Made by a program: the position numbers and the translations under genes. A stretch of 64,000 bases of DNA, from positions 36,418 to 100,417 of the forward strand of contig CAWEWF010000014.1 in NCBI GenBank assembly GCA_963812605.1, read 5' to 3'. Positions 4,193 to 51,743 of the stretch are shown here, in pieces (within the stretch, counting starts at the first letter, position 1; each line of letters starts with the position of its first letter). Under the pieces are notes generated by a model. That model saw only the letters and a list, made by a program, of their open reading frames with translations, was not told where the DNA came from and did no database searches. The stretch is from an uncultured Verrucomicrobiae bacterium (lineage in GTDB: Bacteria > Verrucomicrobiota > Verrucomicrobiia > Palsa-1439).

Positions 4193-5141
4193 TCTGGTAG
4201 AGCTGGTCGGACTCCCCGCTGATGAGGAAGGTGTTCATGCCGTTGAATTGATTAAGCTGGTAACCGCCGTCCTGCAATGCGGTCGGCCTTCCATTACCTG
4301 CGCCATAGAGTTGGTCGCCCCACCACCACAGGTGCACCATTTGGTCAAGGATCGCATAATTGTGGCCGCTGTTGGCGGCGAGATCAGACAATGACGGCCC
4401 GTCAGCGGCGCGCTCCGCAAGGTAAATGGGCGTGTTTGCCGTGACGCTGTTCGATCCGTAGGTGCTGCGCATAAGGTCGTCCTGCAATTGGACACCCGCG
4501 CGGTTGACGGCGCCCGTGAAATAAGGCGCCATGTGGTCCGCGAACATGCCGCTGACGAGGGACACTTGATTGGATTGAATCAGCGACGCGATGCGCTGGT
4601 TGAATTTGGCGCCGTCGACGGAGCCGTTGGTATCGGTCGTGGGATCGCTCTTGGCCCATTGCAGCGCGGAAATCAGGGAACCGCTCAAATGCAGGTTCAA
4701 CGGCAGTCCAAAGATCTGGGCCGACTCAAGCGCGCGGTAATAGCCGACAGGGTTGTTGCCGGGGTTGTACGTCGGATCGTAGCTCGTATTGGCGGCACTG
4801 CTGCTGGGGGTGCGCGTTGCGGTATTGGACACGAGATTCTGAATGAGCGTGCCCGGCAGGATCGACTGGTTCCCATGCAGCAGAATCGCAACCTTGGCGA
4901 TACCGGGCCGGCTGGTGACGGAGAGCGAAGACGAATAGGACGAGAGGTTGACGGGGCTCTGGTTGACGGATGTAAACCAATAGTGCAGCGCGTTGCCGTA
5001 ATTGTTGTTTTGGCTTTGGGTGATACCGTTGTCGTAGATCGAGTCGGTGATTCGCGTGGGATTCGAAAGCGTCGTCGGGCCGGCCGTGTCGTAGACCTGG
5101 AAGTTGAGCGGGGTGAAGCCCGACCACCCTGCGTCGAACAA
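3759..5141 (-). CDS. Continuation segment 2 of the frameshifted giant GH13-family gene
   Basis: Protein-like translation continues upstream of the annotated start in the same frame (…RGYQQSGGVQNQYWRADLDSIEFVIPRQALFDAGW…). It overlaps the 3' 445 nt of the 4697-11068 ORF. Confidence 0.6.
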   Translation of the reverse strand: MFDAGWSGFTPLNFQVYDTAGPTTLSNPTRITDSIYDNGITQSQNNNYGNALHYWFTSVNQSPVNLSSYSSSLSVTSRPGIAKVAILLHGNQSILPGTLIQNLVSNTATRTPSSSAANTSYDPTYNPGNNPVGYYRALESAQIFGLPLNLHLSGSLISALQWAKSDPTTDTNGSVDGAKFNQRIASLIQSNQVSLVSGMFADHMAPYFTGAVNRAGVQLQDDLMRSTYGSNSVTANTPIYLAERAADGPSLSDLAANSGHNYAILDQMVHLWWWGDQLYGAGNGRPTALQDGGYQLNQFNGMNTFLISGESDQLYQNDDLGASITLRELLIRKAIDGVQDQVVILADNWETAAGVGGNSNPDNLNLNLRWLANHQWIQVVRLDQFATGQLDINNDGTVNGSDVPFINQRGSANFNVQAKDFVRHASETNLNNWYFGSSQEESFFNRHPILRGDDNAGTDS

Positions 5142-8100: not shown

Positions 8101-11068
8101 ACGTGTTGAACACGCTGGCCTGGCCACTGCGCGGCAGGAATGTTCGCAGCCGCAACATGTGGAAACCGGCATCCAGACCGACCTGCGTGCTGTTCGTGTT
8201 CAGGTCGTTGTGCAACCACACGAGCGCGGTGGCGGGATTGAAATTGGTAATGGCAAATTGTGTAAGGCCGTAGAGCTTGGCTGTGTCCGCGTCCGAAATC
8301 GGCGTGCCGACATTGCCATTGTACATGGCGATCTTGTACGTGACCGTGCCCGAGCCCTGGGCGGGAATTATCCCGTACCACCAATCATAAGTGCCGTCGG
8401 CGCCGCTGCTCGTATGGCTAAATTGCAAGGGTATGATCTGCGTGGTCGTGCCATGCTTGGCAACGCCGAACGATCCCTCGGGCGCGGTGCCGTCGGTTGT
8501 GTAGTAAATGTTGCCCGTGGTGGTGTTGAATTGGTAACCGACCTTTACCCAATTGGTCACCGCCTGTCCGCCGGCAATGGGTGAACGCATGGCGAGGCCC
8601 TGATCCGTCGTATCGAGCGGATTGTGGTACACCCATGCGGCCGTTGAAGTGTTGACATTGACACCGCTGCCAAACGTGACCGTCGCGGAGCCGCCGATGG
8701 TGTAGGTGTATGTCTCCGCGCCCAGCGAAACCACGACGTTGCGGGAGATATTTGTAGCGGCAAATTTTTCGGGACCGTAGCGGAACTGGAACATGGCCTG
8801 TTCGTAGCCGAGGTACAGGTCATTGGTGTAACCGGGACGGTTGTCGCGCAGGTCCAGCATCGTACCCGTGAATTGGTTTAGCGGCCCGAAACCCATCTGG
8901 CTGTTGAGGTCGACGCCGCCATCGAGCTTGACCAACATGTTTTGCGTCGAGGCGTCGGCGCGCAACACCAGGTTTATCGGGCCGGAATTCGTGATGATCG
9001 GCACGTCAATCGCATAGGTGAGGTTGGAAACATTCGTGCCGCCGATGATGTTACCGGTTTGATCGATGCTGCCCCGCATTTGAAAGGGGTAGGACGGATT
9101 CCATCCGGTGTCACCATCGGGTCCGTCGGTGCGTAGCGTGGTCATCCGTGGCGCGTCCTGGCCGCCCTGCTGAATGGTGATCGCGTCCTTGAGTCCGGCC
9201 CGACTGGCCTGGGGACCTTGATACGCGTAAATAACGTACCCACCGCTGGGGACGACCAATTCAACCGCACCGCCATTGGCTGGAATGCTTTGCGAGCCTA
9301 CATAGACAGTGGCGCCGTTGCTGGCCACGGCCACGCTCCGGCTATTGGTCGCCGGCCGAACGGTGATCTGACTGAAGGCGCGATTGGCGCCAGGCCCGGA
9401 AGCCGCCAACTGGTAAAGCACCGAGCCGACCGGGAAATCCACCGCCAATCCCTGGGCATCACCGTTTGCGCCGGGGGGAATTGGGTCGCTGCCCGGCCAG
9501 GAGTCATTGATACCGTCCAAAAACGCTATGTCACCGGGAAAGTTAAGGTCGTCATTCATTACGAACAGCGACACCACCTGCGAAGACTGGCTGCTGCCCT
9601 CGCGGTAATCGTAGCGCTCAAACGCAACGGTATACTGATCGCTCCACCGCGGGATGGTGCCGCCGCGCGCTTCCTGGTTGTGGAGGTAGGCGACCTCGGG
9701 CATTTTATTGTCACCGAATTCGCCCAGGAATGGCGCATACGCAATCGCCGGAAATGCCCCGCCGCATTGCGCGCAATTCGCCGATTCATAGTAGCCATCG
9801 CTGTAGAGCGAGGGCAGGCCCTCACGCATGAAAAAGTAGGCCATGAGCACCGCGCGTTGCGCCGTGAAGACGACACCCGGGTCATGTGTGCCCACAAACA
9901 TCTCGCGGTCAAAGGAGCTGAATCCCCCGGCGTCGCGCCCATCGTAGCCGGACAAGCTGTTGCCGTTCGGGTTGCCCAAAATGTTGTTGATGTTGTTGTG
10001 CAGGTTGATGTCTTCCAATCGCATGCCGCGATTGTAGTAATCATCAAAACTCGGCGGCTCCCCGAGGTGTTCGCCAAAGATGATCGCGTCATTGCGCACC
10101 GCTTCGGTGTCGTACGCGCTGTTGCGATTGTCGTCCGGCTCATTGTAGCCGCTGATCGGGTTGTTGTAGCCGTAGCCGTGGACGTAATCGAACATGGTCT
10201 GGATCGCGCCGTTGTAACCGTTGGGCGTGGAGCTGAGGTAGTCGCCGAAGAAAAAGCTCGGCACATGTTTCACCGCGTCCAGGCGAAATCCATCGCATTT
10301 CGTTTGATCCAGTTCCCACAAGACCGCGCGAATTTCGTAGGATGCGGTGTCTTCCGCCACCGGCACGCCGTTGGTCCCGTTGAACGGGTGCCAGACGGTC
10401 GGGCCGGATTGCCCCTGGATCGGCGCGAGGGTGAAATCGGGGTAATACTCCGGATGGGTGGGTTGACGCACAAATATCAACTTTGGATTGGTGCTGCCGT
10501 CAATCGAACCGAAGTTTGCATTCGGGCTTTCCTGCGACAGATCGATCAAATCCGAGAAGCCATGGTTCTGGATTTGGAAGACGTCATTCCAATCGCTGAT
10601 GTTTGGCCACTTGCGGTAAAAGCCATCGGGCGTGGTCTGCAAGTGGAAGTCCTCGGGCAAGAGGCCGGGATAAATCGTAATCGGTGTGTTCGCATCATAC
10701 CCGGGCACACTGTAGCCACGGTGGTTCATGACATTGTCGAGATACACGCGAATGCCAAAACGGTGCGCGACGCGGACCACGTGGATCAATTCCTCCTTCG
10801 TGCCGTAGCGGGTGGGAATCGTGCCATTCTGGTCCTGGTCGCCGAGGTCAAAGGGATCGAAGATGTCATAACCGGCCGAGAACTGGCTGGTGGCCTTGGT
10901 CGGCGGGGGCAGCCACAAGGCCGTGTATCCCGCCTCCGCAATTTCTGGCATCTTGTCTGCAATCTGGTTCCAGGTGAGATTATACAATTGAAGCATCGCC
11001 TCGGCGTGAACCGGCGCTGAAGACGCCACGCAGAGGAAAAGGATCGCGAGTAAGGTTCGGAGCTTCAT
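4697..11068 (-). CDS. GH13 alpha-amylase family giant secreted protein, N-terminal 2,000-aa segment: signal peptide MKLRTLLAILFLCVASSAPVHA, GH13 core with region II GFRLDAVKHV, beta-sandwich repeats, DxDxDG thrombospondin-type-3-like Ca-binding repeats
   Basis: ORF track plus motif reading. The last ~150 codons (ISNPAASKINTGARTLTRLNLSSRDRH...) are out-of-frame read-through. Confidence 0.85.
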   Translation of the reverse strand: MKLRTLLAILFLCVASSAPVHAEAMLQLYNLTWNQIADKMPEIAEAGYTALWLPPPTKATSQFSAGYDIFDPFDLGDQDQNGTIPTRYGTKEELIHVVRVAHRFGIRVYLDNVMNHRGYSVPGYDANTPITIYPGLLPEDFHLQTTPDGFYRKWPNISDWNDVFQIQNHGFSDLIDLSQESPNANFGSIDGSTNPKLIFVRQPTHPEYYPDFTLAPIQGQSGPTVWHPFNGTNGVPVAEDTASYEIRAVLWELDQTKCDGFRLDAVKHVPSFFFGDYLSSTPNGYNGAIQTMFDYVHGYGYNNPISGYNEPDDNRNSAYDTEAVRNDAIIFGEHLGEPPSFDDYYNRGMRLEDINLHNNINNILGNPNGNSLSGYDGRDAGGFSSFDREMFVGTHDPGVVFTAQRAVLMAYFFMREGLPSLYSDGYYESANCAQCGGAFPAIAYAPFLGEFGDNKMPEVAYLHNQEARGGTIPRWSDQYTVAFERYDYREGSSQSSQVVSLFVMNDDLNFPGDIAFLDGINDSWPGSDPIPPGANGDAQGLAVDFPVGSVLYQLAASGPGANRAFSQITVRPATNSRSVAVASNGATVYVGSQSIPANGGAVELVVPSGGYVIYAYQGPQASRAGLKDAITIQQGGQDAPRMTTLRTDGPDGDTGWNPSYPFQMRGSIDQTGNIIGGTNVSNLTYAIDVPIITNSGPINLVLRADASTQNMLVKLDGGVDLNSQMGFGPLNQFTGTMLDLRDNRPGYTNDLYLGYEQAMFQFRYGPEKFAATNISRNVVVSLGAETYTYTIGGSATVTFGSGVNVNTSTAAWVYHNPLDTTDQGLAMRSPIAGGQAVTNWVKVGYQFNTTTGNIYYTTDGTAPEGSFGVAKHGTTTQIIPLQFSHTSSGADGTYDWWYGIIPAQGSGTVTYKIAMYNGNVGTPISDADTAKLYGLTQFAITNFNPATALVWLHNDLNTNSTQVGLDAGFHMLRLRTFLPRSGQASVFNTFLQSFYYAPQTPSGVIAFPTNDGDTLGSQTYGVVVRAQDTTTEVDYHIDDNSANNDDSATGQLNGNGNGTNGAPSWAVATEVSPLPSIGLQYPNLPHEFRFNYVGIPSSGPATITVRLKDASSTLYTNHYTTLTRQVNCAAPSQVLNIAFPVNNGDTVSLDQNSFYEIVACFSSSLSAVPTNFTIRIDGSVQPRTSPTNTPLYLFQGSFCGNGTRDLRYDWSGMSAGQHLIEFLYDDGAVSLYASRIVNVSLTGVSASILQPPAVDPSKNVPPDTIVFGTCGGGAAPTNDAYTITVQTSTSVTNVLVSFMPTTNGFQGGPAQLSTNVGTALLWNFNWTNMVAGAWLIRADVFGGGSNTTFRSVDVAFRPIVPTNPNSDDSDNDGISDYLETTAQPLPSTNPDTWKNSDVHVYFFSGKTDPNSAHSDGDPNGLPDGLKLGIGPLPAATNTVTGLDPNCGTRNFIASLDPPLYNTLDNSTAPAGYQGYVPWPFNYNNPRTDQIAGTVLNPSTPDTDADGLRDAVEDMNHNGRVDITLTNSTGTPLTSTNGIAGLTYDTVTLSNANGSLVIAGYGTSWQYPNMGGLSIPNGTAITTSIVVIAHPPTIYNTSMIDRTKVLQVWPAAVWLETDPNNPDTDGDGIPDGAENASGTGFLKIGLLNRNIGYNASSCGCPCVSNVTACVTNVLSTPLPPTILYWPLTSRVNRKALIQQYPNAVLLETDPMDAHTDGDPNGLPDGWKTRYGLDPWDDGVIGHTNWHTGALITTNLNGAAGNPRGDGISNITKFLNGLDPTLFYSNGVAVNAGSLIVGSGATIGSTAGNTWFTEFQGWSVNDLKVVRPYDGIGPNVNNHTIYPIYDGFDWSRDLVAFYARDGGNDGNYYFRVDMHDLTFGADQNGRVSLYVAINIGSPGTGETTLPENVGATTDMGWHVLAAIYGQVAGSYAANLYVKLPGSVPVSTRPAAISNPAASKINTGARTLTRLNLSSRDRHCSTQGGRASPRSTSRSTTRPARRRFRIPRESPTRSTTTVSPKAKTTITATRCTIGLHPSTRAPSTSRPIRLRSPSPAGPVSPRLRFCCMGTSRSCRARSFRISCPIPQRAPPAAVPPIRATIRRTTPATTLSAITARLSRPRSLDCR

Positions 11069-39053: not shown

Positions 39054-40964
39054 TTGATGAACTTGGCAGAATATCTGTATGCGAGTTCTCTCTTGTTCGC
39101 GCCGCCGCAACGTGGTTTGCTTTTCGCGATGCCGACACCCGCGACCATGCAAGCGAATACGCAATCCGACTGGACGGTCATCCGTCGTCTGCTGGCACTG
39201 AGTTGGCGCTATCGCGCGGGCTGCATCAAGGTGTTCATTTACCAGTTGGTCCTGCTCTCGATGGGGCTGGCGGGGCTGGGGTTGACGGGGCTGGGGATTG
39301 ATTTTGTTCGCTGGCAAATTCACTCGACAGCGACACCGCCGCACTGGCCGTTCGGGCTGGCGCCGCCAGCGGCGTGGTCGCCGATGAAGGTGCTCACGGT
39401 CATCGCGGCCATCATGTTCACGTTCGCGATCCTGCGAGCGGTGCTGAACTACGTTTACAGCATCGCCGTGGCCGTGCTTGTGGAGCGGTACATTGTGGTC
39501 GAGATGCGGGCGCAGGTCTATGAGAAACTCCAACGGCTCAGCTTTCGCTTTTATGATGCCAACGAGACCGGCTCGATCATCAACCGCGTCACCGGCGACT
39601 CGCGCGCGGTCGCGAACTTCGTCAACAACGTGTTGATCCAAAGCATCATCATGGTGTTGTCGCTCGTCGTGTTCCTGTCGTACATGCTGACCATTCATGT
39701 AAAGCTCACGCTGGCGTGCCTGGCGGTGATTCCGCTGCTCTGGGTGATCGCCGCTGTCTTCTCGCGTGTCGTCCAGCCCGAATATGTCCGCAATCGCGAG
39801 CTGGTGGATCGGATGATTCTGCATGTCGCCGAGACCGCACAGGGAATCCAAACGATCAAGGGTTTCGCCCGCGAACGGGAGCAGAGCGCCATCTTCGCCG
39901 CCAGCAACGAAGCCGTGCGCGCGCAACAGCAGACGATTTTCTGGCGCGTGAGCCTGTTTGTGCCGTCGATCGGGATGCTGACGCAGGTGAGCTTGTTTGT
40001 GCTGCTGATTTACGGCGGGCACCTGGTCATCGTGGGCGAATTGCCGTTGGGCACCGGCATGGTCGTGTTCGCGGGACTCTTGCAGCAGTTCGCGGCGCAA
40101 ATCGCGAACATCGCGCAAATCGCCAACACCATCCAGCAGAGCCTCACGGGGGCGCGGCGCGTGTTTGAGGTGCTGGACGCGCCCATCGAAATCGTCAATC
40201 CGCCCAATGCGACCCGGCTGGCGCGCGCCAAGGGCGACGTGCGGTTCGAGAGCGTCAGTTTCGGGTACAACGCCGGGGATGATCCGGAGTTGCAAGGGGT
40301 GACCTTTGAGGTGCGACCAGGCGAGAGCATCGCCATTCTTGGGCCGACTGGCTCGGGCAAGACAACGTTGTTGAGTTTGATCACGCGATTCTATGATCCC
40401 CAGCGCGGGCGGGTGCTGGTCGACGGCACCGACGTGCGGCGATTTAATCTCGACGATCTGCGCCGCAACGTGGGGTTGGTGTTCCAGGAGAGTTTTCTTT
40501 TCAGCAACACCGTCGCGGCCAATATCGCGTTCGGGCATCCGGATGCGACACGCGACGAGATCGAGCGGGCGGCGAAGATCGCCGCCGCGCACGAGTTTAT
40601 CGTGAACCTGCCCAAGGGCTACGACACGCTGCTCGGCGAAGGCGGCAAGGATTTGTCGGGCGGGCAGCGCCAGCGGCTGGCCATCGCGCGCGCGTTGTTG
40701 CTCGATCCCGCGATCCTGTTGCTCGACGACCCGACGGCAGCGGTCGATCCCGAGACGGAAAAGGAGATTCTCGAAGCGATTGAGAATGCGATGCGCGGGC
40801 GCACCACGTTCATGGTGGCCAACCGCATCAGCACGTTGCGGCGCGCCGACCGCATCCTCGTGCTGGAGGACGGACGGATCGTACAGGTCGGCACGCACGA
40901 GGAGCTGGTTCGCATTGATGGGCCGTATCGGCGCACGACGGAATTGCAGTTTGCCACCTCATGA
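39054..40964 (+). CDS. ABC exporter subunit (TMD-NBD half transporter) with a degenerate Walker B/catalytic site (ILLLDDPTAAVD)
   Basis: Six TM helices, Walker A GPTGSGKTT, signature LSGGQRQRLAIARAL. Walker B has D in place of the catalytic E. Confidence 0.85.
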   Translation: MMNLAEYLYASSLLFAPPQRGLLFAMPTPATMQANTQSDWTVIRRLLALSWRYRAGCIKVFIYQLVLLSMGLAGLGLTGLGIDFVRWQIHSTATPPHWPFGLAPPAAWSPMKVLTVIAAIMFTFAILRAVLNYVYSIAVAVLVERYIVVEMRAQVYEKLQRLSFRFYDANETGSIINRVTGDSRAVANFVNNVLIQSIIMVLSLVVFLSYMLTIHVKLTLACLAVIPLLWVIAAVFSRVVQPEYVRNRELVDRMILHVAETAQGIQTIKGFAREREQSAIFAASNEAVRAQQQTIFWRVSLFVPSIGMLTQVSLFVLLIYGGHLVIVGELPLGTGMVVFAGLLQQFAAQIANIAQIANTIQQSLTGARRVFEVLDAPIEIVNPPNATRLARAKGDVRFESVSFGYNAGDDPELQGVTFEVRPGESIAILGPTGSGKTTLLSLITRFYDPQRGRVLVDGTDVRRFNLDDLRRNVGLVFQESFLFSNTVAANIAFGHPDATRDEIERAAKIAAAHEFIVNLPKGYDTLLGEGGKDLSGGQRQRLAIARALLLDPAILLLDDPTAAVDPETEKEILEAIENAMRGRTTFMVANRISTLRRADRILVLEDGRIVQVGTHEELVRIDGPYRRTTELQFATS

Positions 40965-42790
40965 AAGCGGCCCTGACACAAGTGCGACAGGAAGACCTGG
41001 ACGAGTTGAACCTGCGTCCGCTGGAAATGAACTTGATCTGGCGGATGTTCCGGTACACGCAGGCGCACGCGCGCAAACGGAATTGGTTGTTCACGCTCGT
41101 GATTGTGCGGTCGATTCAATTGCCGATGCTGGCGTGGGCCATCGGCGCGGTGATCAACGGGCCGATTGCCCGGCACGATTCGCGCGGCGTCATGTGGGGT
41201 GCGGTCGGATTCCTGGCGTTCGCGGCAGTGACGCAGTTCTGCTTCCACTTTCGCCAGCGGCTGGCGCTGGAGTTGGGCGAGTCGGTTCTCCAGGATTTGC
41301 GACGCGACATTTTCCAGCATTTGCTGCGGATGCCGATGAGTTTCTACAACCGCACGAAAATCGGGCGCATCATCAGCCGTTACACGTCCGATGCCGAGGC
41401 CATGCGGGTCGGCTGGCAGGACGTGTTTTTCATCACGGCGGTCCAGGCAGGACAGATGTTTTTTTCGGCGCTGCTGATGTTGTGGTACGACCGGGTGCTG
41501 TTTCTGGTCGTACTGGCCATGGCACCGGTGTTGGGGGCCATGAATTATCATTTCCGCCGCACGCTGAGCAACGCGAACCGCAAGGTGCAGGAGAGCTGGA
41601 GTCGCGTGACGGCGACCATCGCGGAATCGGTCACGGGAATTCGCGTGACGCAGGGATTCGTGCGGCAGGATGTGAACGCGGGCCTGTTTACGGACCTGCT
41701 GATGGACCATTCGGTTTACAATCTCGGTGTGGCGCGGGCGACGGGTGTGTTTCTGCCGATGCTGGAATTGAACAGCCAGACGTTCACCGCGGCGCTGCTG
41801 GTGCTGGGCGGCTATCGGGTGTTGAGCCCGACGATTCATATGGACGTGGGCAACCTGATCCAGTTCTTTTTTCTCGCCAACCTGTTTTTCAGTTCCATTC
41901 AGCCGCTGGGCAACATGTACAACCAGGCGCTGGCGGCGATGGCGGGGGCGGAGCGCGTTTTCCGTCTGCTCGACACCAAGCCTGATTGGGAGGAACCGCC
42001 GACGGTGCGCGAGTTGCCGCGCATCCGGGGACGCGTCGAGTTTCGCGATGTCAGCTTCGGTTACGTCCCCGATCGGCTGGCGCTGGACGAAATGAATTTC
42101 ATCGCTGAACCCGGGCAGACTATCGCGCTCGTCGGTCACACGGGCAGCGGCAAGAGTTCCATCGTCAATCTGATCACAAAATTCTATCTGCCGGGGGAAG
42201 GCGCTGCGCTGATTGACGGGTTCGATACGCGTGATATCCAGGGCGACTCACTGCATCGGCAAATGGGTATCGTCAGCCAGCAGAATTTCCTGTTTAGCGG
42301 CACGGTGATGGATAACATCCGCTTTGGCCGGCCCGCCGCGACCGACGAGGAAGTTGTGGATGCCGTCCGCAAACTGGATTTCCTCGACGTGATCGGTTCG
42401 CTCTCGGCGGGATTCGCGACGGCGGTGGGGGAACGCGGCACGAACCTCTCGCTTGGCCAGCGCCAGCTTATTTGTTTTGCGCGCGCGATGCTGGCCGACC
42501 CGCGCATCTTGATTCTCGATGAGGCCACGAGTTCCGTGGACGCCATGACCGAAGCGCGCATCCAGAAGGCGCTTGTAAGGTTGTTGCAAGGCCGCACCAG
42601 TTTCGTCGTCGCCCACCGCCTCAGCACGATCCGCCATGCCGACCTGGTTCTCGTGCTGAGCCACGGAAAAATCGTGGAACGCGGCACGCACACGCAGTTG
42701 CTGGCGGCGAACGGCACTTATGCGGAATTGTACCGGCAATTCATCCGCGCGACGGGGACGACGCCAAGGCAGACGGTAACAGGTGTGTAA
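40961..42790 (+). CDS. ABC exporter subunit (TMD-NBD half transporter), canonical ATPase site; heterodimer partner of 39054-40964
   Basis: Walker A GHTGSGKSS, signature LSLGQRQLICFARAM, Walker B ILILDEATSSVD. 4-nt overlap with the upstream gene. Confidence 0.85.
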   Translation: MKAALTQVRQEDLDELNLRPLEMNLIWRMFRYTQAHARKRNWLFTLVIVRSIQLPMLAWAIGAVINGPIARHDSRGVMWGAVGFLAFAAVTQFCFHFRQRLALELGESVLQDLRRDIFQHLLRMPMSFYNRTKIGRIISRYTSDAEAMRVGWQDVFFITAVQAGQMFFSALLMLWYDRVLFLVVLAMAPVLGAMNYHFRRTLSNANRKVQESWSRVTATIAESVTGIRVTQGFVRQDVNAGLFTDLLMDHSVYNLGVARATGVFLPMLELNSQTFTAALLVLGGYRVLSPTIHMDVGNLIQFFFLANLFFSSIQPLGNMYNQALAAMAGAERVFRLLDTKPDWEEPPTVRELPRIRGRVEFRDVSFGYVPDRLALDEMNFIAEPGQTIALVGHTGSGKSSIVNLITKFYLPGEGAALIDGFDTRDIQGDSLHRQMGIVSQQNFLFSGTVMDNIRFGRPAATDEEVVDAVRKLDFLDVIGSLSAGFATAVGERGTNLSLGQRQLICFARAMLADPRILILDEATSSVDAMTEARIQKALVRLLQGRTSFVVAHRLSTIRHADLVLVLSHGKIVERGTHTQLLAANGTYAELYRQFIRATGTTPRQTVTGV

Positions 42791-42947
42791 ATTATAGGGC
42801 GTGGACTCCTTCGACCACGAAGCCACGAAGGACACGAAGATTTATGGATAGCATTATCCATAGCCGAGGGTGGCGAGGAGGGAAACGGGCGGCGGAACTG
42901 ACGAAAGCGGCTTGTGAATTGTAAAGCGGTGACACTCTAAACTTCGC

Positions 42948-43835
42948 TCAACCGGAAATATGAGCGACTTCCTTCCGTATGTCTTCGCCAGCGGCCTTAA
43001 TTCCGTGCGGTATGTCGATCCAGATTATACCCTGAATATCTGAGGGTAGTTCAATAGGTCCCTTTCGTAGCGCAATGACTCGGCCAGTCTTTCTCCCCAT
43101 TTGGGCGTAGAAGAATCCAAGCTCGAAGACCACGTTCTGTCGCGCTCTCCGCTTGTCGTCGTCAGTTGCGAGACTAACACCCGAATCGTCCGGTGTCAGA
43201 AGAACGAAGACGCAGTCAATGCGAGACGCGAATTCTTCAAATTTTTCAATGATGGTCTTGCCCCGACTTGGTTGCTCGCGGAGCACAACTGGTTCTTGCC
43301 ACTTCAGCGTATTCTGGAGGTAGTCCTTAAGTTCGGTTAGTGTTGCTTCGTCATGCCCGTGAACGATGAATGCTTTCGGAGCCGGAATGGTCGATAAAAC
43401 CCCGATCTTTTCGAGGGCCCGAAGTAGAGAATGCGGGCCTTCATCCTTGAATATGAAGGGGATTCCCTGTTCGGACGCCCATTCGCTCGCCTCGCCCCCC
43501 ACGATTCCCGACGAAAGCAAGATGAGGGGCATCTTATGGCCGCGATTTTTGACTTCTCGGCACAGTGCGACGCCAGAGAAGAAACCTGCCCGTGCTGATT
43601 CCGGTGAAATCCCCGATTCCGCGGGATCATTGGGCAGCATCACATCCGAAATTACGCAACCGAAACCTTCGAGAGGCATATGCAGCGCCTGCTGCACACT
43701 TCCAGCGACGACACTTTCAAAGCCGTTATCGGACAAGAGTTCTGTAAGTCGGATGGCGTAATAGTGGTCGTCTTCAACGATCAGGATTTTCATACGCATT
43801 TTAGAAAGACATTCTTCCAGTTGCTTTCGATTCAA
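42948..43835 (-). CDS. Response-regulator receiver domain fused to a TIR-like nucleotide-binding domain (COG4271 / CAP12-Pycsar-effector-type)
   Basis: N-terminal REC (MKILIVEDD … ISDVMLP). C-terminal KAFIVHGHDEATLTELKDYL … CVFVLLTPDD … RARQNVVFELGFFYAQMGRKTGRVIAL … ELPSDIQGI matches the TIR-like family consensus (FAIVLLTPDD … ARQNVIFELG … PSDL) from memory. The likely true start is MRMKILIV at 43793-43799. Confidence 0.7.
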   Translation of the reverse strand: MNRKQLEECLSKMRMKILIVEDDHYYAIRLTELLSDNGFESVVAGSVQQALHMPLEGFGCVISDVMLPNDPAESGISPESARAGFFSGVALCREVKNRGHKMPLILLSSGIVGGEASEWASEQGIPFIFKDEGPHSLLRALEKIGVLSTIPAPKAFIVHGHDEATLTELKDYLQNTLKWQEPVVLREQPSRGKTIIEKFEEFASRIDCVFVLLTPDDSGVSLATDDDKRRARQNVVFELGFFYAQMGRKTGRVIALRKGPIELPSDIQGIIWIDIPHGIKAAGEDIRKEVAHISG

Positions 43836-44217
43836 TTAACTTCCTCGCCGTGTCTAATGGTGTCTCCCCTTTCCTCAGGTATAAAATGTTCTGCTTCTTT
43901 AGGTCTTCGATCTTCTCCGCATCAGCTATGACCGATAAGCAGATGATCGCGACCCCTCGCCATTGCTGCCGGATCTTACGTACAAAGTGGAATCCTGCGG
44001 AAGATGAATCGACTCCTGGGAATCCATCACCTGCAGGCATCATTATATCAGTCACGACGACATCGATATGTTGGTGCTGAAGAATGTCCCATCCATCTGT
44101 CACATTCGTTTTCGAAATGCAATTGTAGCCTCTGGATTCCAAGGAAAGTCGCAATGCCTCACTAAGCCACGGTTCATCGTCGACAAAAAGGATAGTATAC
44201 TTTGCATTGTCATTCAT
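43801..44217 (-). CDS. Stand-alone response-regulator receiver (CheY-like)
   Basis: ILFVDDEPWL … phospho-acceptor D in DVVVTDIMMP … K in YLRKG. No output domain. Confidence 0.8.
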   Translation of the reverse strand: MNDNAKYTILFVDDEPWLSEALRLSLESRGYNCISKTNVTDGWDILQHQHIDVVVTDIMMPAGDGFPGVDSSSAGFHFVRKIRQQWRGVAIICLSVIADAEKIEDLKKQNILYLRKGETPLDTARKLIESKATGRMSF

Positions 44218-44984
44218 GCCATTCGGCTCCGGGGAAAAACAAGCGTAAACTGGGAGGTCTTTCCATTGGTATCGAGTGTCACTCTGCCCTCGTGAAGTTG
44301 CATCACACGCGTCGCCAAGTAGAGACCAATGCCTGTTCCTGCCGGGACTCTCTGTTTGGCAGCCGCACCGCGAACGCCCCGCTCGAATATCTTTTCCCTT
44401 TCTGCTCCGCTTATCGGCATGCCTACACTGGTTACCGAAACCCCAACACCATCCAACTTTTCGGCGCGAACGGTGATTGCAGTCCTGGCGTCTGCATATT
44501 TTACGGCATTCTCCAGGAGGTTGGATATAGCCTGAGCAACCAAGTTCTTCTCTGCCCGTACCTTCCGAGTATCCAAGATGTCCTTGAATGAGTCGTTGTC
44601 GACAATAATATTTTTCTCAACGTCGAAAGCTTGGGGCTGAAAATCATTGGCGAGGTTGATTGCCAGCAGCATCAGGTCAATGGGTACTTGGTTTCGCATT
44701 TGTCCAAGCTGTTCGTCGGCTTCAAGGTTCGACATCAGAGCGAAGTTCTTAATTAAGTGAACCAGAATTGTCGCTTGGGAATACACAGAGCGAAGAAGAT
44801 TTCCTTTGCGAGGCACCGGAATGCTTTCATCCTTGAGCGCTTCAATGCTCCACTTGATGGCCCCTAGCGGCGCGGTCAACTGGTGAGCAACATTCTGGAG
44901 ATACATCCTGCTTAGGTCTTTGGAGGATTGAAGTTGTTTTTTTAGGTCTTCGACCTGTTTGCGGAGCTCTTCGATTTCACTCAT
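44214..44984 (-). CDS. Cytoplasmic histidine kinase (coiled coil + HisKA + HATPase_c, no sensor or TM domain)
   Basis: H-box NVAHQLTAPL, N-box LLENAVKY, G-boxes GTGIGL. ATGA overlap with the downstream REC gene. Confidence 0.8.
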   Translation of the reverse strand: MSEIEELRKQVEDLKKQLQSSKDLSRMYLQNVAHQLTAPLGAIKWSIEALKDESIPVPRKGNLLRSVYSQATILVHLIKNFALMSNLEADEQLGQMRNQVPIDLMLLAINLANDFQPQAFDVEKNIIVDNDSFKDILDTRKVRAEKNLVAQAISNLLENAVKYADARTAITVRAEKLDGVGVSVTSVGMPISGAEREKIFERGVRGAAAKQRVPAGTGIGLYLATRVMQLHEGRVTLDTNGKTSQFTLVFPRSRMA

Positions 44985-45390
44985 AGGAAGTTCCTTAAAC
45001 TGGATGCTTCTTCACTCGAATCTCGCCCGACACTCGCCTCAGCAACAGCACGGTGCTGCATGCTGGAGTCTACCAAGCGTTTCGCCGTTCGAGCAAGCCT
45101 GGCGAGTATGGAGTTGCGGCAAAGGATCTAGTATTGGTTATCGGTTTACCCTCTTTTCGGTCAAATCGACCTCAAAACGCCAATGTTTACGAGCATTTCG
45201 TAGAAAAGCTTCCAAACCTTCCAAAGCTTCCAGAGTGCACGCATGCGATTTTGGGCGTTGGGGTAGAGTTGGCATGTGAGTTGTATGAAGAAGGTTTCCA
45301 GTCGCGGTATGACCGAGAGGACTGCCCACAACAACCAGACGGCGCGCGGGACGCACGCCCTACAATCGGACCCCAGGAAAGGATGTAGTT

Positions 45391-46332
45391 ATGATTCCCA
45401 GTGATCTAGTCCCCGCAGCAGAGTCAGCAGAAAACAGGCGGGACGCCTGTTCAGCGAAGATGTTGGCGGCGAATCGGAGGAATGCTCGCAGATCCACGGG
45501 GCCGCGCACGGCGGAAGGGAAGGCGGCTTCGCGGATGAATGCGGTGAAACATGGAATCCTGTCATCGGAGGTGGTGGTGCGGGGGTTGCGGATCCAGGAG
45601 CGGGAGGATGAGTTCCGGGTGTTGCGCGAACGGTGCTGGAAGAGCCTGGCGCCGGTGGGGCCGGTGGAGGAAATGTTGGTGGACAAGATCGTGACAGCGC
45701 AATGGCGGTTGCGGCGGGCGTTGCTGGCGGAAACGGGGGAGATCGTTCTGAGCGTGGACGGCGGGCGCTGGGAGCGGTCGAGGCGGGACCCGATTCCGCT
45801 GGTGACGTTTTTGGATGAATTCCATGACGCGTCGGTGGCGATGACCAAGTCGACGCAGGGATTGGAATACCTGAGACATATCCTGAAGAAAGTCCGCGAG
45901 GGTTTGGAACTGGACGGAGAATTGACGGAGAAGACGTGCGAGTGGGTGCGGAGGCGATTCATGAACGAACCAAATGCGATGACGCAGGCGCTGGAGGAGT
46001 ATCGCGCGGAGTTCCTGGCGAATGCGGAGGGGTTGAGTGCGGAGGTGCTGAAGGATCGGCATCGGGTGGCCGTGGAGCGGTACATCGAGTTGAAATTGAT
46101 CGGCTACGCCGAGTTGAGCGGTGAGCGGAAGGAGCGGGAAGACAAGGAGGAGACGGCGCGGCAGGCGGCGAATGTGTTGCCGTCGACGGAGGTGCTGGAG
46201 AAGATTTTGCGGTATGAGAGCGCGCTGGAGCGGCAGTTGTATCGGGCGATGAACCAGCTTGAGAGGCTGCAACGACGACGGGAAGGGGAGGATGTTCCCC
46301 CACCAGTAACGATGCAGTTATCGCGGGGATGA
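45391..46332 (+). CDS. Hypothetical protein with a basic N-terminus (RRNARRSTGPRTAEGKAASRMNAVKHG) and coiled-coil C-terminus
   Basis: ORF track. Compositionally normal, no recognisable catalytic motif. The antisense 236-aa ORF was rejected. Confidence 0.45.
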   Translation: MIPSDLVPAAESAENRRDACSAKMLAANRRNARRSTGPRTAEGKAASRMNAVKHGILSSEVVVRGLRIQEREDEFRVLRERCWKSLAPVGPVEEMLVDKIVTAQWRLRRALLAETGEIVLSVDGGRWERSRRDPIPLVTFLDEFHDASVAMTKSTQGLEYLRHILKKVREGLELDGELTEKTCEWVRRRFMNEPNAMTQALEEYRAEFLANAEGLSAEVLKDRHRVAVERYIELKLIGYAELSGERKEREDKEETARQAANVLPSTEVLEKILRYESALERQLYRAMNQLERLQRRREGEDVPPPVTMQLSRG

Positions 46333-46416: not shown

Positions 46417-46659
46417 CTACAGGCGCTTTTTGGCGAAGGATCGGCCTGATGCGGTTTTGAGGTAACGCTCAAAGTCCAAGGCCGATTGGCGATGGGTAAA
46501 CGCAATGCAAGTCTTGATACGCCAGGGACGAAACGCTCTCGTGTGAATGGACTTTCCGGAGTTGTGCTCGGCAAGTCGCGCCTTGAAGTCTTCAGTGAAG
46601 CCGGCATAGAAGCGGGTTGGGTCTTTTTCGCTGGCGAGGATGTAGACGTAGTAGAATTT
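46417..46659 (-). CDS. GIY-YIG nuclease-domain protein (short, URI-type)
   Basis: MKFYYVYILASEKDPTRFYAGFTEDFKARLAEHNSG is the GIY-YIG signature. About 81 aa from the internal ATG. Confidence 0.65.
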   Translation of the reverse strand, partial: KFYYVYILASEKDPTRFYAGFTEDFKARLAEHNSGKSIHTRAFRPWRIKTCIAFTHRQSALDFERYLKTASGRSFAKKRL

Positions 46660-46725
46660 CATGGCTTGCGCGGCTGCCCGCCTTCGCTTCGCTACGACGC
46701 GGCAATTTTCGCTCCGAGCGAAAAT

Positions 46726-46768
46726 TGGCGGAGGGGGCGAGATTCGAACTCGCGAGGCCAACATGACC
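46726..46768 (-). other. Partial tRNA gene, 3' part only (T-arm GCGAG-TTCGAAT-CTCGC, acceptor 3' strand CCCCTCC, discriminator G, encoded CCA); candidate att site remnant
   Basis: Minus-strand sequence …GGCCTCGCGAGTTCGAATCTCGCCCCCTCCGCCA. No complementary GGAGGGG 5' acceptor strand, D-arm or anticodon arm upstream, so it is not an intact tRNA. Confidence 0.55.
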
Positions 46769-46873: not shown

Positions 46874-48068
46874 ATGGCCAGCCTACACAAAGATCCGCAG
46901 GGGCGAAGCAAGTTTTGGTACTGCGCTTTCAGCGAATGGGACGCGGACGAACAACGTTGGCAGCGCCGGTTCCGGTCCACCAAGACTGCCAACAAAGAAC
47001 AGGCCCTTCAAATCTGCCGGACATGGGAGCAAGCGGCCAAGACTGCCCAGACAGGCCGACTGACACCCGACCGCGCGCGGGAAATCCTCGCCAACGGGCT
47101 GGAAGGAATTTTTCTCGCCAGCAATCGCGAGCCCATGAAGCGGTACACGGTCCGGGAGTGGGGGCAGCAATGGCTCGACAGCAAGTTGATCGAGAACACC
47201 CCGCGCACCCATGAGCGATATGCCGGCATCATCACCCGGTTTTATGAGCACCTCGGCGCGAAGGCTGACAGGGACATTGCCGCTGTGACGGCATCGGAGA
47301 TCACCGCCTTTCGGGACAAGCTGGCAAAAGAGCTTTCGATCAATACCGCCAACCTTGCCGTGAAGACTTTGCGTGTGTGTTTCGGTGCCGCCTACAGCAA
47401 TGACCTTATTACCAGCAATACCGCCGCGAAGGTAAAGAAGTTAAAACTGCCGCGCATGGGGCACCGCCGCGAGTTTAAGCCGGCGGAAATCCGCCTTCTA
47501 CTGCAGGCCGCCGGTGACAGTGAATGGCGCGGCATGATTCTGACCGCACTCTATTCCGGGCAACGGCTCGGTGATGTGTCACGGTTGCGGTGGGGGGACG
47601 TGCGGCTGGACACCCGCGAGATCGTCTTTCGCGTCAGTAAAACCAACGAAGTTCTGCCGTTGCCGATGGCGCGCCCGCTGTCCGACTATCTCGAAAGCTT
47701 CCCGTCGAGCGACGACGCCAACAGTTTCCTTTTTCCGAAAGCTGCCGCTTGTACCCGCACCGGGTATGTTGAGCAATCAGTTTTACAAGGTCATGGAACA
47801 AGCCGGGCTCGTACCGCAGCGGAAGAACGTCGACACTGGTAAAGGCCACCGCGAGCGTCGCACAGTCAGTTCCTTGTCCTTCCACAGTTTGCGTCATAGC
47901 TGTGTGACGTTTCTCAAAGCCGCCGGAGTCAGCGATGCCATCGCGCAAGCCATCGCCGGCCATGCGTCTAGTGCCGTCTCGCGGATTTACACCCACCTTG
48001 ACGTGGAAACCCTACGCGGCGCTGTCGCCAAACTGCCGGACGTGACGAAGGATGACGCAAAGCGTTGA
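46874..48068 (+). pseudogene. Phage-type tyrosine integrase, one frameshift near 47.73-47.76 kb in a T5 run (ORFs 46874-47842 and 47571-48068)
   Basis: N-terminal SAM-like/core-binding domain. The catalytic C-terminus HSLRHSCVTFL … GHAS … IYTH (R-H-R-Y family) sits in the second frame. Confidence 0.7.
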
Positions 48069-48180: not shown

Positions 48181-49613
48181 GTGCAAGCTAACAAACAGGC
48201 TCTGCGGGTGACTTTCGATAGTCGTTTGAAGCTGGAGTTTCACGGTTCCAAGGTCACCTCCGATGCGGGCTTGCTGGCTTACCGGGAACTGGATGAGGCG
48301 CTGGGACTGACCGCCATGGTGAGTGACCTGCTGAATGATTGGCGCACGGGAAAGAACACGCAACACTCGATGGTGGCGCTGCATGCGGCAGTCGATTTTC
48401 AGCCGTCTGGCTGGATACGAGGACACCAATGACGCCGAACGGCTCTCGGTTGATCCCACCATGCGGCATGTGGTTGGCGGGCGAGCCACGGAACGCACGG
48501 CGGCTTCCACCAGCCAGATGGGTCGCTTCGAGACCGAGGTGTTGACGCAGCCGCGGAATCTGGCGGAGTTGACGAAGCTGTCGGGAATATGGATTGAGCG
48601 GCTGCGGGAACGCCAGCCGATGCGGGAACTGATCCTGGACATGGATAGTTCGGTGAGCGAAACCTATGGGGAGCAGGAAGGCACGGCCTACAACGGGCAT
48701 TTCGGCTGCACCTGCTACCACCCGCTGTTTTGCTTCAATCAGTTTGGCGATGTGGAAGCAGTCCCTGTTGCGGGAAGGCAACGTCCATAGCGCCAAGGAT
48801 TGGCTGAGCGTGCTGGAACCGGTGGTGGCACGCTATCGCGGCCAGAAGTTGCCGCTCTATTTCCGGGCGGATGCCGCCTTTGCCAACCCGGAGATTTATG
48901 AGTATCTGGAAGCCGAAGGTTACGGGTATGCCATCCGGCTGCCAGCCAATGATGTGTTGCTGCGGGAGATCGCGCCGCTGCTGACCCGTCCAGTGGGGCG
49001 TCCCTCGAACGCGCCGGTGTCTGGTATGCGGACTTTCAGTATCAGGCGAAGAGTTGGGATCGCGCCCGTCGGGTGGTGGCCAAGGTGGAATGGCACAAGG
49101 GGCGAATTGTTCCCTCGCGTCGGGTTCATCGTGACCAATCTGAGCCGGCCAGCCAAACGGGTGGTGCGGTTCTACAACCAGCGGGGGACGGCGGAGCAGT
49201 GGATCAAGGAAGGCAAGAACGCGGTGAAATGGACGCGGCTGTCCTGCCACGACTTTGTGGACAACCAGGTGCGGCTGCAACTGTTCGTGCTGGCGTACAA
49301 CCTGGGCAACTTCCTGCGTCAGGCGGTGCTGCCGCAGGTCGGTGCGTCACTGGACGTTGACGACGTTGCGGGAGAAACTGATCAAGATCGGGGCGAAGGT
49401 CGTGCGCCATTCCCGGCAGGTGATCTTCCAGATGGCGGAGGTGGCGGTTCCACGAGAGTTGTTCCGGGCTATTCTGGAAAGGATTGGATGGCTGAGATTG
49501 CCCATGCCGCTGCCCGGCTGATGCTCGCTGGGCGGCAAATGCGGGAAAGCAAAATGGCTGACGGCGATGCTTTGTCTGCGTTCGGTCGAAAATCGGTGCA
49601 GAACGCAATTTAG
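48181..49613 (+). mobile_element. IS1380-family-like DDE transposase gene, disrupted by at least two frameshifts (ORFs 48181-48432, 48335-48790, 48666-49613)
   Basis: VTSDAGLLAYRELDEALGLT N-terminus, GHFGCTCYHPLF, and RFYNQRGTAEQWIKEGK are recalled as IS1380-type transposase motifs; family call is by memory. Terminal inverted repeats could not be confirmed by eye. Confidence 0.55.
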
Positions 49614-49739: not shown

Positions 49740-51743
49740 ATGAATACACACGGGCTTACAGACCGGCGTATTGGCATCGCAATTCTCTGCGCCTTGTTCT
49801 TCGCCTCCGCGCCGGCGCAGGCAACGCTGACCACGAATAGTTGGGGCAGTTTTTTCAGCGGCCCCTGGCAGGGCGGAAGTTTATGGTCCCTTGGTGTACC
49901 TCCTTCCAGCAGCCAGAGCATCGTCACGATCACCAATAGTTTCGTGACCGGAACCTCCAAGACCATCACCATCGACGGCACCACTGCGACGAATTTCCCG
50001 GCCACGATGACCATCAGCAATCTCGCCGTGCTGGGCTCACTGGCCCTCGGCAACGTGCCGCCGTTGGGCAACAATATTTTGGCGCTCAGCGGCACCTCGA
50101 CCTCGGCGCTGACCGTGCTCAATTCCCTCGTGGTCAGCAACGGCGGCATCATCTCCATCTCGAATTCCATTCTGAATACCGGAGGGAATGAACTCATCGG
50201 GGCCCTCGGCACCATGTTCCTGTCGAGCGGAACGAATAATACCGCGGACAACTTGGTCATCGGCGACGGCGTGAATGGCGCCGCGTTGTGGATGAACGGC
50301 GGCGCGTTGAACGCGGCGGCTCTCACCATCAACAACGGAGCGCTCCTCGTCCAATCCAACGGCACGGCAAATATTTACGGCGCGGAGTGCGTCGTATTCG
50401 GCAACTGGGCTTTGGCCGGTGGAACGCAGAATGGTACCCTGATCGTTGGAAATGGTGGCACGCCCGGTACCGCCACCATGACCGGCGGGCAACTGCTTGG
50501 CGGCCTCGGTATCAACCGCGGCACGATGGTGGTGTCCAATGGTCAGGTGAACCTTGCTCAATCCGACGTGGGTTCCCCCGCGAATTCTGATGGCACGTTG
50601 ACCATTGCGGGCGGGACAATTTCTTTGGAAACACTTCAGATTGGCGGCGGGACGGGAACACTTTGGATGACCGGCGGCAGTCTTCAGATTACCAACAACT
50701 ATCTGTACGACGGAACCGGCAACGGAGGTGCCTCCGGAACATTGATTCAATCCAACGGAACCATGGCGCTGTTTGGAGAACTTGTAGGCTCCCCATTCAT
50801 CGGCGGTCCTCCATCTGGCACCCTGACCGTCGCCGGCGGCGTCCATACGATCGGCGCCGGTGGATTGGCCGTGGGGTCTGCGGGAACCGGAACCTTCTGG
50901 TTGACGGGCGGACAAGTGATCGTCACCAATGGCTACACGTATCTCGGCTACGAGGGCTTTGCCACAATGACCGTCTCGAGCGGCACCTGGATGGCTCGCG
51001 ATGTTTATGTGGGTACCGATGATAGTGAAGGAACGCTGACCTTTCTGGGCGGCATCACGACAATCTCCTCCAATCTCACCTTGGGCGATTGCGGCGAGGG
51101 GTCTTTGGGCCACTTGTTTCTAAAAGATGGCTATCTGTTTATCACCAACGCCGCCCACAACGCCACGCTCAACGTCCGTAACGACGTGGTCTTGATCACG
51201 GGTGGTCACTTGATCGTGGACCGGGTCGTCATGACCAACGACTGCGGCCTGTTCATCCACGCCGGCGGCACTGTGAGCGTCGGCAGCGAGCTTCTCGATC
51301 CAAATCTGGACGCCGATAACGATGGCCTGCCAAACGGCTGGGAAATCGCCCACGGTCTCGACCCGCTCGACTCCAGTGGCGTCAATGGCGCCGACGGCGA
51401 TCCCGATGGCGACGGCTACAGCAACATGCAGGAATACCTCGCCGGCTCCGATCCGCAAAATCCTTTGTCCACCCCACTCAATCCCGGCGGCACTTTCGCC
51501 TTCACCTCAATCGTGCACACCGGAAACAATATCGTCCTAACATGGAATACCGTCGGCGGAACAACCAACCAGGTACAAGTTTCCCCCGGTAGTGTCGGGG
51601 GAAGCTACTCGACCAACGCCTTCACCAATCTCGGCGCGCAAATGCTCATCACCGGCAGCGGCGCCGTCATCACCAATTTCACCGACACCAACGGCGCCAC
51701 CAACAAACCCGCCCGTTACTATCGGATCCGCCTCGTACCATAA
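49740..51743 (+). CDS. Secreted autotransporter-associated beta-strand-repeat (PATR) protein with TSP3-like Ca-binding repeats and the shared C-terminal domain (…ARYYRIRLVP)
   Basis: Signal peptide. About 20 Gly-rich beta-strand repeats (GG.L.I.NG…). DADNDGLPNGWE … DPDGDGYSNMQEYLAGSDP. Confidence 0.8.
   Translation: MNTHGLTDRRIGIAILCALFFASAPAQATLTTNSWGSFFSGPWQGGSLWSLGVPPSSSQSIVTITNSFVTGTSKTITIDGTTATNFPATMTISNLAVLGSLALGNVPPLGNNILALSGTSTSALTVLNSLVVSNGGIISISNSILNTGGNELIGALGTMFLSSGTNNTADNLVIGDGVNGAALWMNGGALNAAALTINNGALLVQSNGTANIYGAECVVFGNWALAGGTQNGTLIVGNGGTPGTATMTGGQLLGGLGINRGTMVVSNGQVNLAQSDVGSPANSDGTLTIAGGTISLETLQIGGGTGTLWMTGGSLQITNNYLYDGTGNGGASGTLIQSNGTMALFGELVGSPFIGGPPSGTLTVAGGVHTIGAGGLAVGSAGTGTFWLTGGQVIVTNGYTYLGYEGFATMTVSSGTWMARDVYVGTDDSEGTLTFLGGITTISSNLTLGDCGEGSLGHLFLKDGYLFITNAAHNATLNVRNDVVLITGGHLIVDRVVMTNDCGLFIHAGGTVSVGSELLDPNLDADNDGLPNGWEIAHGLDPLDSSGVNGADGDPDGDGYSNMQEYLAGSDPQNPLSTPLNPGGTFAFTSIVHTGNNIVLTWNTVGGTTNQVQVSPGSVGGSYSTNAFTNLGAQMLITGSGAVITNFTDTNGATNKPARYYRIRLVP

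Follow-up and report, generated by a model that had tools for sequence, protein, structure and literature searches.

A three-gene cassette of a histidine kinase, a receiver and a receiver::TIR-like protein as a candidate phosphorelay-gated defence module

Organization of the cassette

The DNA studied here, referred to as the window, is a 64,000-nucleotide stretch from an uncultured Verrucomicrobiae bacterium of the GTDB lineage Palsa-1439 (assembly GCA_963812605.1, contig CAWEWF010000014.1, positions 36,418 to 100,417 of the forward strand). Between positions 44984 and 42948, the ORF (open reading frame) listing of the window contains three minus-strand ORFs that code, in this order, for a histidine kinase (HK), a stand-alone receiver (REC) and a receiver fused to a TIR-like domain (REC::TIR-like), the last of which is referred to as the effector. 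The HK gene (44214..44984) encodes 256 amino acids (aa) and is matched by the Pfam models HisKA (E=2.2e-6) and HATPase_c (E=3e-16). The stand-alone REC gene (43801..44217) encodes 138 aa recognized as Response_reg (E=8.1e-15). The effector gene (42948..43799) encodes 283 aa and combines a Response_reg domain (E=3.8e-8; residues 1-140, 43380..43799) with a TIR-like domain of the CAP12/PycTIR type (PF10137, E=4.9e-32; residues 141-283 and the stop codon, 42948..43379).

The three genes are packed in an operon-like manner. The stop codon of the HK gene overlaps the start codon of the REC gene (ATGA), and a single base separates the REC stop codon from an ATG at 43799. This ATG is most likely the start of the effector gene (283 aa, MRMKILIVEDD...), and not the TTG at 43835 that opens a 295-aa ORF, because aligned homologues begin at MKIL. 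In a scan for sigma-70 promoters and intrinsic terminators, sites were no more numerous than in shuffled sequence.

In the composition profile, the cassette coincides with a low-GC patch (about 42750-45250) in which GC content is 0.46-0.54, compared to 0.59-0.63 in the flanks. This feature is consistent with horizontal acquisition of the cassette. In the opposite direction, two ABC-type genes (39054-40964 and 40961-42790) converge on it. The trio itself, the lower GC content and the convergence with ABC genes had all been proposed in an initial annotation of the window, and on these points the ORFs, domain calls and composition profile agree with it.

The histidine kinase

In the HK, HisKA covers residues 28-89 and HATPase_c residues 147-252, and no further Pfam domain could be detected. 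The N-terminus is a coiled-coil/DHp helix carrying the phospho-acceptor His34 (codon 44885-44883), with the CA domain after it. Only coiled coil precedes His34, and a sensor domain is absent. A HMMER library search with the HK revealed 29 cluster representatives at E<=1e-30, and all full-length ones are 256-290 aa long, so that the sensor-less state is a trait of the family. The next matches beyond these 29 are generic large sensor kinases of ~30% identity. Longer relatives of 400-670 aa (P0162, P0172, P0182) bear apparent GAF-type N-terminal domains.

Alignment to the solved kinases VicK and HK853 shows that the H-box His and the N, F and G2 boxes are all retained. The H-box is atypical (NVAHQLTAPL), having Gln at H+1 and Ala at H+4 where the canonical form is H-E/D-x-x-T/N-P, and the G1 box reads SxGxP instead of the canonical DxGxG. 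These odd motifs are kept in 13 HK orthologues, in the family representatives and in the GAF-bearing relatives, and the G1 Asp is replaced by Ser or Asn in nearly all members of the kinase subfamily. Conservation of this kind points to a subfamily under selection and not in decay, and we therefore rejected the possibility that the HK is a degenerate pseudokinase. The sequences suggest instead an undescribed HisKA variant, possibly with altered nucleotide use or kinetics. In HisKA kinases, loss of Thr/Asn at H+4 predicts weak phosphatase activity. An external phosphate sink would therefore be useful to a kinase lacking this residue.

The two receivers

The stand-alone REC provides such a candidate. 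Alignment of its orthologues shows an acidic pair (D13/D14), the phospho-acceptor D57 (codon 44049-44047) and a Ser at the T position, while the Lys sits in a strongly conserved LRKGETPL motif. An insertion of ~11 aa is located between the DxxMP motif and helix 3. In the loci examined, the gene is always found between the HK and effector genes or adjoining them. Its product is a candidate sink or buffer for phosphate. This role had been suggested for it initially and appears reasonable, as the same one has been proposed for DtcB of the Detocs system described below.

The effector was compared in an alignment (A1) of 26 homologues sharing 53-82% identity. In its receiver domain, E9-D10-D11, D52 (codon 43646-43644), S96 and K118 are invariant or nearly so, and both receivers of the cassette thus have intact phospho-acceptor residues. 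An insertion of ~13 aa after D52 is modelled by AlphaFold2 as two short helices. The effector model has a predicted local distance difference test score (pLDDT) of 86.7 and a predicted template modelling score of 0.75 overall, with pLDDT values of 83-97 in the receiver domain. A Foldseek search matched this domain with the receivers of BfmR, RstA and MtrA at template modelling scores of about 0.8, and PleD and PorX were also among the fold matches.

The TIR-like domain

The PF10137 match extends over residues 155-275 of the 295-aa ORF and scores 110.9 bits against a cutoff of 24.7. The C-terminal domain is also matched by the PADLOC PDC-S35 models (E=5.7e-46). Its closest solved relatives, by sequence as well as by fold, are Cap12/TIR-STING (9lmq, 7un8) and PycTIR (8jsj). 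The NCBIfam Cap12 models give the effector only 30 bits, compared to a cutoff of 450.

In the cryo-EM structure of SfSTING, the site that cleaves nicotinamide adenine dinucleotide (NAD+) is formed by R78, N80 and the catalytic E84, together with D110 contributed by the dimer mate, so that activity depends on TIR-TIR packing (PMC9402430). The corresponding motif of the effector is R220-Q-N222-V-V-F-E226 (43142-43122), and D254 lies within an LPSD motif (43040-43038). The segment A-R-Q-N-V-V-F-E-L-G aligns with P-R-D-N-V-V-F-E-F-G of SfSTING, and L-P-S-D aligns with L-P-T-D. R220, N222, E226 and D254 are hence equivalent to R78, N80, E84 and D110, and all four are invariant in the 26 homologues. 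The significant match to TIR-like models and the catalytic Glu, on both of which the initial annotation had staked its domain assignment, are accordingly present. Conservation of the trans-acting Asp suggests that the predicted enzyme needs TIR-TIR association.

Conservation and mobility of the trio

The effector has thousands of relatives in the databases. The best 120 clusters (E<=3e-98) consist of proteins of ~280 aa, essentially all with REC and PF10137. Among loci from reference genomes and metagenomic contigs, the order HK-REC-REC::TIR is kept in L001, L004-L010, L030, L084, L085/L086 and L087/L088, and every close orthologue examined adjoins the same HK and REC, located upstream in the same order. 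At L085, standard gene calling missed the stand-alone REC, which tblastn places at 9606-9980. In a distant clade with 37-41% identity (L017, L021, L024), the order is permuted to effector-kinase-receiver; a further locus of this clade, L014, is cut off by the contig end. The kinase neighbour is thus conserved beside REC::TIR in all close orthologues examined and in the permuted clade as well, as the initial annotation had anticipated. Still more distant REC::TIR fusions occur without this kinase (L013, L016, L031; L025 ends at the contig end), and in L015 and L018, which are also distant fusions, other GHKL genes are found nearby.

Hosts of the cassette include Acidobacteriota, Dormibacterota, Desulfobacterota, Planctomycetota, Nitrospirota and Alphaproteobacteria. 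The distribution across phyla is patchy, and identity is roughly 55-60% regardless of the host phylum. Flanking genes differ at every locus. DNA homology to the nearest relative (L001, 82% protein identity) spans 44984-42955, that is, from the kinase ATG to the effector stop codon. Broken copies were also observed, caused by insertion sequence (IS) insertions in L002, by a deletion that left a fusion or remnant in L011, and by frameshifts in L030; such damage points to a cost or to decay, as is typical of toxic defence genes. Taken together, unrelated flanks, DNA homology limited to the trio and broken copies indicate that the three genes form a mobile module, one that hosts can dispense with and that probably carries a cost. 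A scan of viral contigs disclosed many TIR-like relatives and no copy of the kinase cassette.

Surroundings of the cassette in the window

Upstream of the HK gene, a small GIY-YIG gene (46417-46662), an orphan tRNA/tmRNA 3' fragment (46726..46765, minus strand) and a tyrosine integrase pseudogene (46874..48068, plus strand; PF00589), which lies outside the cassette, are found 1.4 kb, 1.7 kb and 1.9 kb from the HK start at 44984, respectively. These distances replace the 2-4 kb given initially. The fragment matches the 3' end of tmRNA in Rfam (E=0.013) and comprises a T-arm (GCGAG-TTCGAAT-CTCGC), an acceptor strand CCCCTCC and a discriminator G followed by CCA, and is without a 5' half. We take the discriminator G and the GGAGGGG-type acceptor to be tRNA-Ser-like. 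A near-perfect 15-bp hairpin (46700-46730) directly follows the fragment.

ARAGORN reported no tRNA across the whole window, no second copy or partner repeat of the fragment was found within it, and the only direct repeats that could bound an island are short and at chance level. Because there is neither a called tRNA nor a partner repeat, an island boundary cannot be drawn. The integrase ORFs 46874-47842 and 47571-48068 hold PF00589 positions 5-100 and 124-170, respectively, and a domain split in this way over two overlapping frames identifies a frameshifted pseudogene. Of the attachment (att) site proposed initially, the tRNA 3' fragment is real; it stands alone, with no intact tRNA, no partner repeat and a frameshifted integrase. 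It is a possible att remnant, and its link to the cassette is putative.

Next to the integrase remnant, an IS-type DDE transposase (48181-49613, plus strand) is matched by PF13701 (DDE_Tnp_1_4, E=8.8e-41), with model positions 185-380 in the longest ORF. It is probably a degraded IS element whose upstream parts lie in other frames. The surroundings therefore amount to a degraded mobile-element patch of the fragment, the frameshifted integrase and the transposase, and the defence-island-like context described initially is weak.

Other features of the window were recorded as well. A 313-aa ORF (45391-46332, plus strand), divergent from the HK gene, has a very strong GC skew (0.29-0.38). It found no match in Pfam, NCBIfam, PADLOC or PHROGs and is not kept beside the cassette at other loci. 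Two apparent surface or secreted proteins were noted: one encoded by a very long ORF of 2123 aa (4697-11068, minus strand), seemingly a large repeat protein, and the other a 667-aa Gly/Thr/Asn-rich repeat protein (49740-51743, plus strand) that ends in the motif DPDGDGYSNMQEYLAGSDP.

Neighbours at other loci and the wider TIR-like clade

Genes near homologous cassettes include known defence components. As an example, the segment 2316-10849 of L085, from a metagenomic genome, holds a type II CRISPR-Cas locus with Cas9 and a Cas1-Cas2 fusion and, ~2 kb further downstream, the cassette, while a resolvase and an 869-aa ThsB-type TIR protein are located near the cassette at L084. Among the 121 ORFs neighbouring the cassette at 16 loci, PADLOC made strong matches to Cas9, Cas1, BrxA, NucC, PDC-S01 and PD-T4-6. 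An association of cassette loci with defence is suggested by these observations.

The TIR-like domain belongs to a clade with the motif FIVHGHD that often occurs on contigs of viral or prophage origin; IMG/VR contigs carry 144 relatives, and there is one PHROG family. Members of the clade combine with a wide range of N-terminal domains. L034 (5608-6426) has a second TIR domain of the classical TIR_2 type, L049 (4329-5093) a DnaJ-type CXXCXGXG zinc finger, and L019, L020 (5119-6465), L022, L023 and L028 large unannotated helical domains. These fusions represent uncharacterised single-gene effector architectures. The variety of N-terminal domains, the relatives on viral contigs and the PDC-S35 match together fit an exchangeable effector. 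The variety of N-terminal domains does not bear out the initial view that this domain is normally controlled by cyclic nucleotides.

Proposed mode of action

The closest functional parallel is Detocs, a validated anti-phage system composed of DtcA (a TPR sensor with a kinase), DtcB (a stand-alone receiver) and DtcC (a receiver fused to a PNP ATP nucleosidase). Its defence requires the kinase His and the DtcC Asp, and mutation of the Asp in DtcB causes toxicity that depends on the effector, from which a "buffer" model was derived (Rousset et al. 2023, 10.1101/2023.01.24.525353).

We propose, giving it about an even chance, that the cassette is a Detocs-like module for abortive infection or for defence against mobile elements, in which a self-contained phosphorelay switches a toxic NAD+-cleaving enzyme. 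The soluble kinase would autophosphorylate on His34, and the phosphoryl group would pass to the two receivers, at Asp52 in the receiver::TIR protein and at Asp57 in the small receiver. The latter would compete for phosphate and drain it, so that basal flux through the kinase leaves the effector off; with the phosphatase residue at H+4 (Thr/Asn) missing from the kinase, such a sink would become necessary. With higher flux, or with the sink saturated, phosphorylated receiver domains would dimerise and bring two TIR domains together, the Asp254 loop of one completing the Glu226 site of the other, as in TIR-STING. NAD+ would then be hydrolysed and the infected cell would stop growing.

A broader version of this proposal is put forward tentatively, since we consider it possible but somewhat doubtful. 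According to it, the cassette is an independently evolved defensive two-component system, widespread in soil and sediment bacteria, in which a TIR NADase that dimerises on phosphorylation is under the control of a sensor-less kinase with an odd core and of a buffer receiver. Either the kinase core or the insertions of the receivers would detect infection in place of a dedicated sensor domain, and phosphorelay gating of suicide effectors would be a convergent, general design and not peculiar to Detocs.

Several points weigh against a defensive phosphorelay. The HK has Gln in place of the acidic general base and a G1 box without the adenine-binding Asp, and it may, judged from these motifs, be a poor ATP-dependent autokinase or perform other chemistry. 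As it lacks a sensor domain, it offers no candidate for what detects infection. Control could operate in either direction, with phosphorylation switching the effector on or off. PADLOC and PHROGs scans found no known defence genes near the window copy, the count of defence neighbours comes from only 16 loci without a matched control, and no experiment on the cassette family was found in the searched literature. In addition, some homologous loci lie amid housekeeping genes, for example L087 (ATP synthase, transporters) and L001.

The last point would be expected if the cassette were an ordinary physiological two-component pathway, whose TIR-like domain makes a signal resembling cyclic ADP-ribose or tunes NAD+ and nucleotide pools in response to a metabolic cue at the kinase core. 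Bacterial TIR domains can indeed produce signals, as in Thoeris, and enzymatic response regulators are common, with PleD and PorX among the fold matches of the effector receiver. We nevertheless find this explanation unlikely. Against it stand a patchy distribution across phyla with similar identity whatever the host, the unrelated flanks, and the repeated inactivation of copies by IS elements, deletions or frameshifts. Furthermore, no gene for a signal receptor or effector is conserved beside the cassette in the loci examined, and the nearest TIR relatives are defence effectors or defence candidates.

Another explanation reverses the direction of control and assumes a guard or addiction logic in which a constitutive kinase keeps the receiver::TIR protein phosphorylated and thereby off. 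A fall in ATP, or an end to kinase synthesis after phage takeover or loss of the element, would lead to dephosphorylation and to destruction of NAD+, with the lone receiver setting the dephosphorylation clock. A sensor missing from every member of the kinase family fits a kinase that reports the state of the cell and not a ligand, and a tight operon on a mobile low-GC module resembles the organization of toxin-antitoxin systems. In Detocs, however, which is the only characterised analogue, it is phosphorylation that turns the effector on, and the lone receiver keeps this from happening. Receiver phosphorylation usually favours dimerisation, and TIR NADases need self-association. The atypical H-box also suggests a slow kinase rather than a strongly constitutive one. 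An inverted switch is for these reasons improbable in our view, and activation by phosphorylation is retained as the preferred direction.

Should the cassette prove to be a defence system, it would represent a second, apparently unrelated use of His-Asp phosphotransfer to trigger an abortive-infection effector. The principle of Detocs would be extended to TIR NADases, and phosphorylation would join ligand-induced filamentation and scaffold assembly as a route by which TIR enzymes are activated. With ~2 kb, three soluble proteins and a kinase reduced to its core, the cassette would also make a very small experimental system for studying how a two-component kinase senses infection and how a sink receiver prevents autoimmunity. 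Uncultivated Acidobacteriota, Verrucomicrobiota, Desulfobacterota and Planctomycetota harbour the family in abundance, and for these four phyla defence-system catalogues, derived mostly from Proteobacteria and Firmicutes, are thin.

Comparison with known systems

For comparison with Detocs, we used the Dtc proteins of V. alginolyticus (Va), E. cloacae (Ec) and metagenomic locus L089. This locus was reached by a database search with the N-terminal 400 residues of DtcA, which gave four partial proteins, one of them at L089. The segment 6001-10466 of L089 is a bona fide Detocs locus, with a frameshifted dtcA, dtcB and dtcC-PNP, in a defence island together with AbiEii, NERD, HNH and integrase genes. 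DtcA proteins carry only the Pfam label PF27260 (Y4jQ) and are missed by standard kinase models.

The cassette and Detocs share the three gene types and their order (kinase, stand-alone receiver, receiver::effector), mobility and patchy distribution, an effector predicted to be a metabolite-depleting enzyme, and a receiver that could plausibly buffer phosphate. In both, the segment that joins the DxxLP motif of the receivers to helix 3 is lengthened at the same position by an unusual insertion of 9-17 aa, which CheY, Spo0F and PhoB are without. On account of these features, the cassette could be regarded as plain Detocs, that is, a divergent dtcABC orthologue already callable by standard models. 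We consider this very unlikely. The kinase of 256 aa has no TPR region, whereas DtcA exceeds 800 aa and has its phospho-His at about residue 645, and Pfam HisKA and HATPase_c recognize the cassette HK while missing the kinase part of DtcA. With L089 as the BLASTP target, E values were 9.2 (kinase), 0.054 (lone receiver) and 19 (effector). Profiles of the cassette receivers scored DtcB and DtcC of Va and Ec no better than the PhoB and CheY controls. Since Detocs receivers show only the affinity of generic receivers, the shared insertion is not proof of homology, and it could reflect distant ancestry or convergence.

Effectors other than PNP occur in about 20% of Detocs systems, and the types listed in Table S5 are PNP, restriction endonuclease (REase), OLD-like TOPRIM, hydrolase and "Unclear" (Rousset et al. 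2023, 10.1101/2023.01.24.525353). TIR is absent from these types, and the string "TIR" does not occur in the Detocs supplementary tables. The cassette effector is a PF10137 TIR protein, in contrast to the PNP, REase, OLD-TOPRIM or transmembrane hydrolase of Detocs, and its predicted target is NAD+ instead of ATP.

With Cap12 (TIR-STING) of the cyclic-oligonucleotide-based anti-phage signalling system (CBASS) and with PycTIR of Pycsar, the effector shares the PF10137 family, the catalytic Arg, Asn and Glu and the trans Asp, and probably also an active site that forms only when TIR domains associate. That its TIR-like domain is instead a non-catalytic output for nucleotide binding or protein interaction, as implied by the COG4271 description "predicted nucleotide-binding protein" that many members bear as a Joint Genome Institute label, is a remote prospect, because invariance of all four NADase-site residues would be hard to explain without catalysis. 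What differs is the way the enzyme is controlled: in Cap12 and PycTIR, a cyclic nucleotide from a cyclase encoded in the operon binds to a fused STING or cyclic-nucleotide-binding domain, whereas the cassette has a phospho-receiver and a kinase, and no cyclase gene adjoins it in the window. PDC-S35 is a single-gene candidate with a similar C-terminal domain and an N-terminal part that does not align to the receiver. Among PDC-S35 and FIVHGHD relatives, the TIR_2, DnaJ-type zinc finger and helical N-termini come without kinase and receiver partners.

Housekeeping signalling offers parallels as well. CheB, PleD and PorX are enzymatic response regulators, and receivers of the CheY type serve as phosphate sinks in chemotaxis. 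A fused enzyme gated by a receiver and a second, single-domain receiver that drains phosphate from the kinase are thus common to those systems and the cassette. They differ from it in having sensor inputs and non-toxic outputs.

Literature searches on REC-TIR fusions, COG4271, PF10137 and defence by two-component TIR systems brought up no paper that describes the cassette. The initial annotation had called a phosphorylation-gated TIR-like effector undescribed, and this claim was too strong because Detocs, a known defence system with a phosphorelay-gated effector, matches the cassette in gene order and logic. What stands as new is the use of a TIR effector together with a sensor-less kinase of canonical type, in a trio with no significant sequence similarity to the Dtc proteins.

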